A model generated the notes under the pieces. It saw nothing but the letters and a program-made list of their open reading frames with translations. It did no database searches and was not told the DNA's origin. A DNA stretch of 64,000 nucleotides from Candidatus Abawacabacteria bacterium (GTDB lineage: Bacteria > Patescibacteriota > Gracilibacteria > RBG-16-42-10), in assembly GCA_016207805.1 (NCBI GenBank), contig JACQZO010000020.1, positions 35,634 through 99,633 on the forward strand. The letters are read 5' to 3'. Of this stretch, positions 985 to 43,998 are shown piece by piece. Each line of letters begins with the position of its first letter. Position 1 is the stretch's first letter. The position numbers and the translations under genes were made by a program.

Positions 985-2661
985 ATGCAATGCCGTCAAT
1001 GCCAAGCTCATTATTTAGTTAGCAGTGAAGATCTCGCATTTTATGAAAGCATGTCACCAACTTTTGCTGGCAAAAAGTATCCTATACCTAACCCGACACT
1101 TTGCCCTCCATGCCGCCGCCAGAGAAGACTTTCCTTTCGTAATGAAAACAAACTCTACTCTAGAAAATGTGATCAATGCCAAAAAGACATTATTTCTATT
1201 TACTCGCCAGATAAAGAACAAGCTGTCTATTGTATGAAGTGCTGGTGGTCAGAAAAGCATGTACCCACTGACTTTGGCCGCGATTATGATTTTAACCGAC
1301 CTTTTTTTGTCCAATTAACTGAATTATTGAAAAAGACTCCCCTCCCTAATCTAATCGCTACTCCTGATGCTGAAGAAAGCAATTGCGCTTATGTGAATTG
1401 TGCTGGTCACAACAATAATTGTTATATGATCTTTGATGCTGACCATAGTGAAGATTCTCTCTATAGCAATGCTATCAAGGCCAGCAAAAATACGATTGAT
1501 TGCTCTTATATCCAGATGTCTGAGCTTTGTTATCAATGTGTAGATTGTACACAATGTTACAATCTCCTTTATAGCCAAGATTGTGCCAATTGTCGCGACA
1601 GTTATTTTTTGAAAAATTGCATTAGCTGTAATCATTGTATTCTCTGTGTCAATTTACAGCATAAAGAATATTGCATTATGAATCAGCAATATTCAAAAGA
1701 AGACTATGAACAATATGTAGCAAAGCTCAACTTGGGTAATCGTGATAGCATTCCTGCTTTATACGCAAAGCTCAAAGGTTTCGCCAAAGAGCACGCCAAC
1801 AAGTTTTTTCATGGCCATCAAGCAGAAAATAGCAGTGGAGACTATCTATATAATGTCAAAAATTGCAGACACTGCTTCATGACTACTAAAGGTGAAGATC
1901 TCACCTACTGTGACTCCTTAATTGATGCTCGTCATTCTTGTGATATTTCTTCTTTCGGTGAGAATATGGAGCGCTGCTATGAATCAAATGCAATCGGCGA
2001 CAATGTCTATGAAGTGTTTTTTTCTCAACTATGCGCTGGTAATATACGTAATGTCTATTTCAATTTAGGTTCGAGAAACAGCCATGACTGTTTTGGCTGT
2101 ATCGCACTTAAGAGCAATGAATACTGCATTCTGAACAAACAATATAGCAAAGACGACTATGAAAAAATGGTGGCACGAATCATTGAACATATGTTGAGTA
2201 CTGGTGGCTGGGGTGAAGGATTACCAATGTTTATGTCACCTTTTGGTTATAATGAAAGCATGGCCAATATATTTTTCCCCTTAACAAAAGAAGCAGCAAG
2301 CAAATTAGGCGCTAAATGGAAAGATGAAGTAGCTAATACTTCCTCTGCAGCACCAGTTACTGTGCCCGCTGATATTAAAGTAGTTACTGATACAATTATT
2401 AACGAAGTACTCACCTGCAGCAGCTGTCAGAAAAAGTACAAATTGGTAAAACAGGAATTACAATACTATCGAGACCACAATGTACCAGTGCCGATAAATT
2501 GCTTTGATTGCCGTTATCGTATGCGTTTAAGCATGCGAAATCCACAAAAACTTTGGGATAGTCACTGTCAAAAATGTGGCGTTAATTTTGAAACTAGTTA
2601 TGATCCAGCCAAGGAAGATCTGGTATATTGTGAAAAGTGCTACTTGGAAAATGTACATTAA
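985..2661 (+). CDS. Cys-rich zinc-ribbon-bookended family, array member 2 (sites N1+ N2+ C1+ C2+)
   Basis: 558 aa intact ORF. N-module CRQCQ..CPPCRRQRRLSFRNE..RKCDQC..VYCMKCWW. FDFNRPFF. KEYCIMNQQYSKEDYE mid-protein and NEYCILNKQYSKDDYE late. C-module CSSCQKKYKLVKQEL..CFDCRYR..HCQKC..VYCEKCY. Confidence 0.9.
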   Translation: MQCRQCQAHYLVSSEDLAFYESMSPTFAGKKYPIPNPTLCPPCRRQRRLSFRNENKLYSRKCDQCQKDIISIYSPDKEQAVYCMKCWWSEKHVPTDFGRDYDFNRPFFVQLTELLKKTPLPNLIATPDAEESNCAYVNCAGHNNNCYMIFDADHSEDSLYSNAIKASKNTIDCSYIQMSELCYQCVDCTQCYNLLYSQDCANCRDSYFLKNCISCNHCILCVNLQHKEYCIMNQQYSKEDYEQYVAKLNLGNRDSIPALYAKLKGFAKEHANKFFHGHQAENSSGDYLYNVKNCRHCFMTTKGEDLTYCDSLIDARHSCDISSFGENMERCYESNAIGDNVYEVFFSQLCAGNIRNVYFNLGSRNSHDCFGCIALKSNEYCILNKQYSKDDYEKMVARIIEHMLSTGGWGEGLPMFMSPFGYNESMANIFFPLTKEAASKLGAKWKDEVANTSSAAPVTVPADIKVVTDTIINEVLTCSSCQKKYKLVKQELQYYRDHNVPVPINCFDCRYRMRLSMRNPQKLWDSHCQKCGVNFETSYDPAKEDLVYCEKCYLENVH

Positions 2662-2723
2662 GGGCATTGGCTTAAGCAAGAATTGTTGGTATCATTAGAT
2701 GATACACAAATTAAAATCACCGT

Positions 2724-42247: not shown

Positions 42248-42315
42248 TTCCTTCCCCCTCCCTACCGACTTTCTCATTTCTATTGTATCTTATGCTCAAT
42301 TGATCAAGCTTCCTC

Positions 42316-43998
42316 ATGCCCACTTCACTAACCTGCACCCTCTGCCACTCTGCATTCGCACTTTCTGACACTGAAATCGCTTTTTTGGATCGCCTCAGTC
42401 CTATCATTGCCAATCAAAAATTCCCGCTACCCAATCCTACGCAATGCCCTAATTGTCGTCTCATTGGTCGTGTCATCAATCGTAATGAACAATTCCTTTA
42501 CAACACTAAATCTGCCCAATCAGGAAAAGATATTATTGCTTTATATTCTGCTGATTCACCAGCCAGTAATCGCTTCAAAGTGTATACGCAGGAGGAATGG
42601 TGGGAAGAAAGTATGGACCCCTTGAGCTATGGACGTGAGTACGATTTTTCTCGGCCCTTTTTTGCTCAATATGCTGATTTACATTTATCTGTCCCCAAAC
42701 CTGCGCTAAACCAAGTAAGTAATGAAAATTCACCATATACGACTGGTACTGGCTACTGTAAGAATTGTCATCTAATTAATTCTTCTGAATACTGTCAGGA
42801 TTGCTATTACGGCAAATTAATTCAAAGCTCGCGAGATATCATGGATAGTTGCTATATTTACGACTCTGAACTGTGTTACCAATGTTTCTATCTGACTAAA
42901 TGTTATGGCTGTAATTATACGTATTACAGTCAAAATTGCACTGAATGTTATTTTTCAGATAATCTCAAAGGCTGTAAGAATTGCTTTCTCTGTACCAACC
43001 TTGATAACAAACAGTATTATTTCCTCAATGAACCTTTAGAAAAAGATGCTTACATAGCAAAAGTTCACGAATTCTTGGGCTCAAAAGAGAATATTACTAA
43101 AGCATTAGCCTTATTTACTGATCTTAGAAAAAAGCGAATATATAAATATGCTAATATTACCAATTGTGAATCATCCACCGGAGATTTCTTAACAAATTGT
43201 CAGAACTGTATTGATTGTTATGACACTAATGACAGCCAAGACTGTCAGCATGTCATAGTAGGCGTAGAAATCAAAGATGTTATGGATTGCAGTAATGTTT
43301 ATGTGAAGCCGGAACTGAATTATCAAGTGATGGGAGCTTTAAATACCTATCAAGTACTTTTTGGTATTTATGTCTTTAATTCTCAAAATATTTTGTATAG
43401 CCAGTTTTGCTACAATTCTAATAATCTTTTTGGCTGTAATGGCATGAAAAAAAATGAATATTGTATTCTCAATAAACAGTATTCTAAATCTGAGTATGAA
43501 GCATTGGTCCCGAAGATTATTGCTCACATGAAAAGTACTCAAGAATGGGGTGAGTTTTTCCCACCAACCCTATCCCCATTTTCCTACAATGAAACAGTAG
43601 CCAATGAATATTTACCTTTAACTCAAGAAGCAGCACAAAAAAGAGGCTATAGCTGGAAAGAAAAAAATCAGAAAGATTATCAACCTCAAAACTATCATGT
43701 TCCAAGCAAAATCAGTGAGGTGAAAGATGATATCCTCCAAGCTATTTTAGCCTGCAGCACTTGTGGCAAAAACTATCGCATTTTGCCCCAAGAGCTACGA
43801 AAGTTGAGAGACACGAATTTTCCTATTCCCGAAAAGTGTCCTGACTGTCGCCACAGCGAACGCATGAGCTTGCGCAATCCTCGCAAATTATATGAGCGTC
43901 AGTGCAGCAATTGTTCACTATCAATTATCAGTCCTTTTGCTCCTACTAGAGAAGAAAAGGTTTATTGTGAACAATGCTATTTACAAAATGTATTATAA
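42316..43998 (+). CDS. Cys-rich family, array member 20 (N1+ N2- C1+ C2+), last copy in window
   Basis: 560 aa. CTLCHS..CPNCRLIGR, with N2 fully lost (NTKSAQSGKDIIALY). C-module CSTCGKNYRILPQEL..CPDCRHSER..QCSNC..VYCEQCY. Core family blocks retained (FDFSRPFF, NEYCILNKQYSKSEYE, QEWGEFFP). Confidence 0.9.
   Translation: MPTSLTCTLCHSAFALSDTEIAFLDRLSPIIANQKFPLPNPTQCPNCRLIGRVINRNEQFLYNTKSAQSGKDIIALYSADSPASNRFKVYTQEEWWEESMDPLSYGREYDFSRPFFAQYADLHLSVPKPALNQVSNENSPYTTGTGYCKNCHLINSSEYCQDCYYGKLIQSSRDIMDSCYIYDSELCYQCFYLTKCYGCNYTYYSQNCTECYFSDNLKGCKNCFLCTNLDNKQYYFLNEPLEKDAYIAKVHEFLGSKENITKALALFTDLRKKRIYKYANITNCESSTGDFLTNCQNCIDCYDTNDSQDCQHVIVGVEIKDVMDCSNVYVKPELNYQVMGALNTYQVLFGIYVFNSQNILYSQFCYNSNNLFGCNGMKKNEYCILNKQYSKSEYEALVPKIIAHMKSTQEWGEFFPPTLSPFSYNETVANEYLPLTQEAAQKRGYSWKEKNQKDYQPQNYHVPSKISEVKDDILQAILACSTCGKNYRILPQELRKLRDTNFPIPEKCPDCRHSERMSLRNPRKLYERQCSNCSLSIISPFAPTREEKVYCEQCYLQNVL

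Follow-up and report, generated by a model that had tools for sequence, protein, structure and literature searches.

Cysteine-containing and cysteine-free (C+ and C-) paralogs of the zinc-ribbon ribosomal proteins L31, L33, L36 and S14 were reportedly described by Makarova et al. in 2001, under the title 'Two C or not two C' (cited in PMC7363858). In a treble clef a knuckle in the turn of a beta-hairpin supplies two ligands and the N-terminal end of an alpha-helix the other two, a beta-hairpin intervening (PMC4999995), and RING-like treble clefs that have lost zinc ligands and kept the scaffold include the U-box and the C-terminal RING of alpha-COP (PMC4678705; survey in PMC4999995). Pfam lists PF13451 as a 'probable treble clef domain', both the fold and the metal binding being termed 'probable'. 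Here we describe an array of 20 paralogous genes (positions 3-43998, forward strand; 535-575 amino acids (aa), with a few unrelated open reading frames (ORFs) between them) in a window of 64,000 nucleotides from Candidatus Abawacabacteria bacterium (assembly GCA_016207805.1, contig JACQZO010000020.1, positions 35,634 to 99,633), the window being the whole stretch of DNA that was analysed. The encoded proteins carry up to four candidate Cys4 sites, N1 and N2 towards the N-terminus and C1 and C2 towards the C-terminus, each composed of two CxxC knuckles, and an original prediction made from the window held that the two knuckles of a site are always kept or lost together. We find that the two halves of each site do behave as a unit across a large protein family. 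The best explanation, which we hold at a probability of roughly 0.8, is that each site is a treble-clef finger with four thiolates on one structural metal ion, the two halves being kept or lost together as was proposed.

The halves of each site covary independently of phylogeny and linkage

The 20 copies were translated and aligned with MAFFT, and the 16 cysteine columns were read. The site counts of the original prediction proved exact, N1 being intact in 17 copies and broken in two, N2 in eight and 11, C1 in 13 and seven, and C2 intact in all 20 (Table 1); the alignment likewise bears out that no window copy carries a half-only site. The broken N1 sites read CKITGK/APYERLR in member 4 and CAITGK/SHVERLR in member 9. 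Other details need amendment. It had been stated that neither half of a broken site survives, which is true of the CxxC motif and not of the first cysteine, still there in 19 of the 20 broken window sites and gone only from N2 of member 20; the second cysteine is replaced by serine or threonine in every one. The knuckles had been placed 25-35 residues apart, which agrees with the spacer of N1 and C1 (24-33 residues) and not with that of N2 and C2 (17). Finally, the range 985-43998 given for all copies leaves out member 1 and includes the ORF at 2724-4622 and several further ORFs that are not members of the family. If the copies are treated as independent, the perfect association of the halves has p = 0.006 for N1 and 1.3e-5 for both N2 and C1. 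A tree of the window copies, based on the central domain only, requires a minimum of one event in N1, four in N2 and two in C1, or about seven in all. Because the copies are related and the independent events few, the statistical weight must come from homologs, and the window alone is suggestive, not conclusive.

Three samples of homologs were collected, comprising 118 close homologs, 149 representatives with less than 50% pairwise identity from a library with 6027 clusters matching the family profile, and 235 full-length copies from 79 loci of GTDB species genomes; the pooled set holds 518 unique full-length sequences, to which the following counts refer unless another number is given. N1 is intact in 433 sequences, broken in both halves in 58 and left with three cysteines in 13; the corresponding counts are 158, 358 and one for N2, 205, 304 and seven for C1, and 499, 10 and four for C2. 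Half-only sites do not occur in N1, N2 or C2, and a single true half-site was found in C1, far from the appreciable frequency that would have told against joint loss. When the diagnostic cysteines of one half are set against those of the other, the formal covariation test gives a phi coefficient of 0.89 for N1, 0.99 for N2, 0.98 for C1 and 0.75 for C2, and of at most 0.26 between sites, the covariation being block-diagonal. In a scan of all cysteine-containing columns the top seven pairs are all within sites, and the approximately 25 cysteines of the central domain, which serve as an internal control, reach a pairwise phi of 0.36 at most. A sequential pairing of the knuckles is thus well supported. 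A cross-braced, RING-like pairing (knuckles 1-3 and 2-4) was considered and is ruled out by the between-site values, as is a general depletion of cysteine behind the loss of sites, the number of central cysteines not falling with site loss (rho -0.23).

Neither linkage nor common descent accounts for this pattern. Neighbouring knuckles of different sites, which lie 19 aa apart, have phi values of 0.10 (N1b-N2a) and 0.14 (C1b-C2a), while same-site knuckles 25-37 aa apart reach 0.89-0.98; because near neighbours are uncorrelated while more distant halves of one site correlate, linkage is excluded. Phylogeny was assessed by Fitch parsimony on a neighbour-joining tree of 284 sequences with 566 branches, built from the central domain only, that is, without the finger regions. 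The numbers of changes in the first half, in the second half and in both scored jointly are 27, 25 and 31 for N1, 47, 48 and 48 for N2, 50, 53 and 55 for C1, and 6, 6 and 7 for C2. Since the joint counts are close to those of the single halves, nearly all changes are common to both halves and fall on the same branch, where chance would give about 1-5 coincidences over the tree.

The sites differ in how often they are intact, N2 (31%) being the least retained, followed by C1 (40%), N1 (86%) and C2 (97%), and the commonest architecture has N1 and C2 alone intact (184 of 518). The original prediction had taken C2 to be the only indispensable site. This was overstated, because among 513 homologs scored 10 (about 2%) have a broken C2, and nine full-length members lack any intact site.

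Domain identity, modelled topology and the broken state

Profile comparison assigns the four sites to two small domains. N1 and C1 match PF13451 (zf_Tbcl) over profile positions 5-44 of 48, with both CxxC motifs covered, at E < 0.01 in 31 of 41 family segments (best E 5.8e-10), and N2 and C2 align with positions 1-36 of the 37 of PF23477 (zf_Tbcl_2). In member 15 both CxxC motifs of N1 and of C1 bracket the domain, the cysteines being invariant in alignment A3, and N2 and C2 both show an exact CxxC-x17-CxxC spacing. Scores are modest: window copies of N1 and C1 cover profile positions 4-44 and reach 16.5-22.4 bits against a PF13451 gathering score of 24; for PF23477, with a gathering score of 27, N2 of member 15 lies above it at 28.9 bits and C2 below it at 23.6-25.8 bits; and the NCBIfam model TIGR04272 gives about 20 bits, its cut-off of 36 not being reached. 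C2 also matches the second zinc finger of the LIM protein CRP2 (1cxx) Cys-for-Cys, with E 0.004, and a sequence search of the PDB with the N1/C1 profile returned spurious C2H2 knuckle matches only. HHalign aligns the N module (residues 4-90) with the C module (478-555) at a probability of 99.8% (E 3e-30). The two modules are internal duplicates, so that the four sites represent two domain types, each occurring twice. As each site matches one Pfam domain end to end, the site corresponds to one known small domain and the inferred pairing to the domain boundary. Both are Pfam types already known, and probably zinc fingers.

Two other assignments were tried and rejected. The Pfam LIM domain matches the second finger only, with E-values of 0.025-0.06 that do not pass the cut-off, and rubredoxin (about 50 aa with two CxxCG-type knuckles) is represented by a sole match of 12 residues to PF21349 at E 0.14.

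An AlphaFold2 (AF2) model of member 15, made with 134 sequences in the alignment, has a mean predicted local distance difference test score (pLDDT) of 89.8 and a predicted template modelling score of 0.89, with pLDDT 90-98 in the terminal modules, and its topology was read from DSSP. At all four sites the model has the first CxxC in a turn that joins two short strands, and the second CxxC in the opening turn of a helix. The knuckle of N1 is predicted between strands 2-4 and 11-13, with an intervening hairpin and a helix (43-51) that opens at the second CxxC; that of N2 lies between strands 60-63 and 70-73, with helix 86-89 at the second CxxC. In C1 a two-residue strand pair (about 477-478/485-486) flanks the first CxxC and helix 508-517 stands at the second, and in C2 the corresponding elements are strands 525-528/535-538 and helix 551-558. 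This predicted layout fits the definition of a treble clef.

The broken state, by the residues that occupy it, is a recurrent and conserved alternative and not random decay. Its consensus is C-x-x-[S/T] in the first half with [C/H/D/E]-x-x-[E/Q/A] in the second. Position 1 is cysteine in 82-98% of broken sites and position 2 is serine or threonine in 96-99%; position 3 is cysteine or histidine in N1 and C1 and aspartate or glutamate in N2, and position 4 is glutamate, glutamine or alanine, with glutamate in 31-67%. Because threonine is two mutations away from cysteine, the residue at position 2 is likely to have been selected. Aspartate, glutamate, serine and glutamine are favoured at helix N-termini according to established helix-capping propensities, and on such general propensities the residues of the broken state would suit a tight turn and a helix N-cap. 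Three-cysteine forms make up about 1-3% of sequences, the odd residue often being aspartate, histidine or asparagine; we count these in favour of a metal site, because they too are able to ligate metal. Between sequences of different state, central-domain identity reaches about 65-68% in the closest pairs, and relatives at or above 70% identity keep a common state; hence the states are stable among close relatives, and a full switch takes place over moderate divergence.

Preferred explanation and its rivals

On the preferred explanation the family member would be a cytoplasmic protein of about 555 aa, consisting of a PF13451 and a PF23477 finger, a duplicated cysteine-rich beta-solenoid, a linker, and a second pair of PF13451 and PF23477 fingers. 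The first CxxC, in the turn of a beta-hairpin, and the second, in the first turn of an alpha-helix, would jointly hold one metal ion, most probably Zn(II) to judge from the domain matches. All four ligands would be needed: with one lost, binding would fail or weaken and the ligands still exposed would soon be replaced, leaving few intermediates (about 1-3%). The domain would neither unfold nor disappear. It may instead settle into a second stable, metal-free solution, reached many times independently, in which the buried first cysteine is kept, the second becomes a serine or threonine apt for a tight turn, and the positions at the helix N-terminus are taken by residues of helix-capping type (C/H/D/E and E/Q/A). 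Of the roles that the terminal modules might have, the binding of nucleic acid or of a partner would be the likeliest, given the basic CR.QRR tail that follows each PF13451 knuckle. The proposal that paired knuckles form one four-ligand site therefore stands as regards the pairing, on which covariation, coincident changes, Pfam domain limits and AF2 topology agree, and we infer that the partner of the ligands is a metal.

A rival explanation takes the covariation for a mere product of shared ancestry or physical linkage with no functional coupling, through a few ancient events or through gene-conversion tracts between array neighbours, and draws on the small number of events that the window pattern needs and on the opportunity for gene conversion that tandem arrays provide. 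It is largely refuted, and we regard it as very improbable, since about 25-50 coincident changes per site (six in C2) are found on a tree that excludes the finger regions, the same pattern is repeated in three separately collected samples, and the dependence of phi on distance is the opposite of that expected from linkage. It is just as hard to credit that each site forms two disulfides and binds no metal. The Cx/Cx state, in which Cys1 and Cys3 remain, accounts for 36-53% of broken N1 and C1 sites and could be read as one surviving disulfide; yet Cys1 is kept in the great majority of broken sites whatever the residue at position 3 (H, S, A, D or E), and hence Cys1 and Cys3 are not acting as a pair. 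The complementary xC/xC state is never seen in the homolog samples, and the proteins have no signal peptide or membrane segment and are cytoplasmic in context.

Two further rivals change the nature of the metal site and are unlikely, if less remote than the preceding pair. The sites might hold iron in rubredoxin-like Fe(Cys)4 centres with a redox function in place of structural zinc: rubredoxin is likewise defined by two CxxC knuckles, including CPxC, PF21349, to which the weak match noted above was obtained, is rubredoxin-like, and some 25 further cysteines in the centre of the protein would suit the handling of iron. Against this, the profiles that match best are those of treble-clef and zinc-ribbon families and of a LIM finger, the second CxxC is modelled at a helix N-terminus, unlike the two-knuckle rubredoxin fold, and a redox centre is unlikely to be dispensable in 60-70% of paralogs. 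Similarly improbable is a broken state that forms a different, mixed-ligand metal site (cysteine with histidine, cysteine or aspartate, and glutamate), with the family toggling between two kinds of site. The replacements at positions 3 and 4 are certainly rich in residues capable of ligation, and the state is conserved in relatives at 70% identity or more; but the serine or threonine that all but invariably stands at position 2 is a poor ligand, position 4 is often glutamine or alanine, N2 is commonly left with one cysteine plus carboxylates, and the preference of D, E, S and Q for helix N-termini explains the replacements without a metal.

Several points do weigh against the preferred treble-clef explanation. 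The neighbour-joining tree is error-prone, its sequences being about 40% identical, and the parsimony counts are inflated, although such errors raise the absolute counts and leave the coincidence of changes untouched. Most single domains of the window fall short of the Pfam gathering thresholds, and a PDB search found no solved structure covering a PF13451- or PF23477-type domain. The cysteine, histidine, aspartate and glutamate of the broken state belong to metal-ligand types, so that the metal-free status of that state is an inference, as are the presence of metal in intact sites, its identity as zinc and the persistence of the fold without it.

The array, its setting and known systems

The central domain, present in all copies, contains a unit of about 120 residues twice over (HHalign 99.9%), and AF2 models it as a beta-solenoid whose strands recur at intervals of approximately 12 residues. 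The cysteines of the first repeat are restricted to every third position, up to four per 12-residue coil, as in the run C212-x2-C215-x2-C218-x2-C221; in the second repeat the three-residue spacing occurs in runs with register shifts. No family for the central domain or for the whole protein was found in Pfam, NCBIfam, PADLOC or PHROGs. Foldseek against the PDB gave nothing significant with a full-length model from a shallow alignment (E >= 1.4) and, with a model from a deep alignment, generic left-handed beta-helix enzymes only (E 0.2-2, template modelling score about 0.1-0.2), and the sole matches in BFVD, short, local and with non-significant E-values, were to models labelled 'putative zinc-ribbon domain'.

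Table 1. Members of the array and mapped features of member 15. Members are numbered as in the original prediction; site states are given in the order N1 N2 C1 C2, with 1 for intact and 0 for broken.
Feature	Position	Strand	Length (aa)	Site states	Remarks
Member 1	3-635	+			C-terminal fragment, cut at window start; C1 broken (C..T / A..E), C2 intact
Member 2	985-2661	+	558	1111
Member 3	4689-6371	+	560	1101	C1 reads C..T / H..I
Member 4	7280-8932	+	550	0001	C2 sole intact site
Member 5	10113-11810	+	565	1001
Member 6	11811-13517	+	568	1001	Length from TTG; ATG 3 codons downstream
Member 7	13580-15307	+	575	1111	28-aa charged insert
Member 8	15365-17071	+	568	1101
Member 9	18730-20388	+	552	0001
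Member 10	21346-22953	+	535	1111
Member 11	24091-25743	+	550	1011
Member 12	25818-27488	+	556	1011
Member 13	27548-29233	+	561	1111
Member 14	29274-30929	+	551	1011
Member 15	30993-32672	+	559	1111	Reference for numbering and for both AF2 models
Member 16	32769-34436	+	555	1011	Length from ATG; mechanical ORF from TTG at 32736
Member 17	34497-36161	+	554	1111
Member 18	36186-37856	+	556	1011
Member 19	39241-40908	+	555	1011
Member 20	42316-43998	+	560	1011	First cysteine of N2 lost too
N1 of member 15	31005-31127	+			C5, C8 ... C42, C45; PF13451-type domain
N2 of member 15	31182-31256	+			C64, C67 -x17- C85, C88; PF23477-type domain
C1 of member 15	32427-32522	+			C479, C482 ... C507, C510; PF13451-type domain
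C2 of member 15	32577-32651	+			C529, C532 -x17- C550, C553; PF23477-type, like second LIM finger
First solenoid repeat of member 15	31392-31682	+			aa 134-230; HHalign
Second solenoid repeat of member 15	31827-32135	+			aa 279-381; HHalign

The window copies diverged long ago as paralogs, with 34-47% identity to member 15, and many have their nearest relatives in other genomes and not in the window. The mechanical starts of members 16 (TTG, 32736-32769), 6 (TTG, 11811-11820) and 7 (GTG, 13580-13583) are probably over-extended, an ATG lying 11, 3 and 1 codons downstream, respectively, and the database protein corresponding to member 16 (P0097) begins at the ATG. Member 7 alone has a highly charged insert of 28 residues, SGGSKNEDTEELRRRQTQRPRQEEALEG, after the second solenoid repeat R2 (aa about 405-435; 14800-14890). 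A database look-up of member 2, directed at an upstream extension of the array, gave a shorter independent assembly and added nothing.

The family is nearly confined to Patescibacteria, mainly Peribacteria/Peregrinibacteria and Gracilibacteria. At 50% identity it comprises at least 6027 clusters, nearly all of them from Patescibacteria whose genomes measure about 1 Mb. Its genes normally stand in tandem arrays (loci L033, L077, L006, L022 and L001), the largest filling a locus of 21.6 kb with 12 copies. A literature search on the Pfam accessions and on cysteine-rich arrays of Peregrinibacteria found nothing relevant. Within the present array, on the opposite strand, lies a gene for a TrmB-family helix-turn-helix protein of 252 aa (38343-39101), and because TrmB-like homologs recur in 35 of 79 family-bearing loci of other Patescibacteria, L001 included, the distribution suggests a conserved partner or regulator. 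Intergenic spacers at 25744-25817, 34437-34496, 32673-32768, 15308-15364 and 30930-30992 consist of short heptamer-like repeats of the AGAGCTR, TTCTGAA and TAATTYG types. When folded, most of those examined gave very stable hairpins (-13 to -33 kcal/mol, z -3 to -7), which could be terminators, processing sites or sites for a regulator; two spacers of the TAATTYG type do not fold.

The array is broken by unrelated ORFs at 2724-4622 (+), 6341-7270 (+), 17157-18488 (-), 20504-21247 (+) and 40918-41670 (-), which encode a Pro/Ala-rich low-complexity protein of 632 aa, a DUF4328 membrane protein and three proteins without a family; none has a homolog among the 79 related loci. The gene calls of an independent assembly that covers this region (L080) place a ParE toxin and Phd-YefM antitoxin pair at about 8954-9522 (-), between member 4 and an ORF at 9642-10100. 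Downstream of the array are ordinary chromosomal genes, including two tRNAs, an ABC-F ATPase, MsrB, DnaG, RpoD, MutS and MutL. The ORF at 53468-55351 (+) unites an entire sigma-70 factor, regions 1.1 to 4, with an adenylate kinase domain (residues 413-592) and could be a real fusion or the product of a missed stop or a frameshift.

Protein sequences by themselves show that two Pfam zinc-finger domains termed 'probable' act as single four-ligand units with sequential pairing. The family also amounts to a natural experiment, with more than 500 paralogs sampled and more than 6000 clustered, and some hundred or more parsimony-inferred transitions between a Cys4 finger and a single stereotyped cysteine-poor form, from which rules for the survival of a treble clef without metal may be drawn, and it directs attention to a very large unnamed family of Patescibacteria whose arrays take up a noticeable share of small genomes. 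A wider interpretation is doubtful, though it deserves a little more credence than any of the rivals weighed above: the fingers would be a natural two-state system, Zn(Cys)4 against a selected metal-free form, and genomes of about 1 Mb would keep arrays with graded metal demand (4, 3, 2, 1 or 0 sites) around a previously undescribed beta-solenoid with about 25 cysteines at its core positions, one residue in three. Should the solenoid bind metal or iron-sulphur clusters, or should the supply of metal decide which paralogs are used, as in the C+/C- ribosomal proteins, the family would represent a novel class of metalloprotein and a new way for bacteria of the candidate phyla radiation to economise on metal.

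Among known domains, PF13451 shares with N1 and C1 both CxxC motifs and the CR after the second knuckle; it differs in that N1 often has a 9-residue insert, and that here a PF23477 finger and a large solenoid belong to the same chain as the domain. Compared with PF23477/TIGR04272, the cysteines of N2 are lost in 69% of family members. LIM domains have contiguous fingers, C-x2-C-x16-23-H-x2-C-x2-C-x2-C-x16-21-C-x2-(C/H/D), with a 2-residue linker, whereas here the fingers are 19 residues apart, the first finger is of another domain type with a 24-33 residue spacer that includes a helix, and E-values are just 0.004-0.06. The U-box and the alpha-COP RING are binuclear and cross-braced, in contrast to the sequential mononuclear sites indicated here by covariation. 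The C+/C- ribosomal proteins resemble the present family in the recurrent, joint loss of all four cysteine ligands and in the coexistence of cysteine-containing and cysteine-free paralogs in one genome, and their fold and function persist without the ligands; they differ in having a single site and C- forms that are tied to zinc starvation, whereas the present proteins have as many as four sites per chain, and 20 paralogs share one array. The concerted loss of all ligands from a small zinc site with retention of the fold is thus already well known, and the array described here is an unusually clean case of it, in two known Pfam types.

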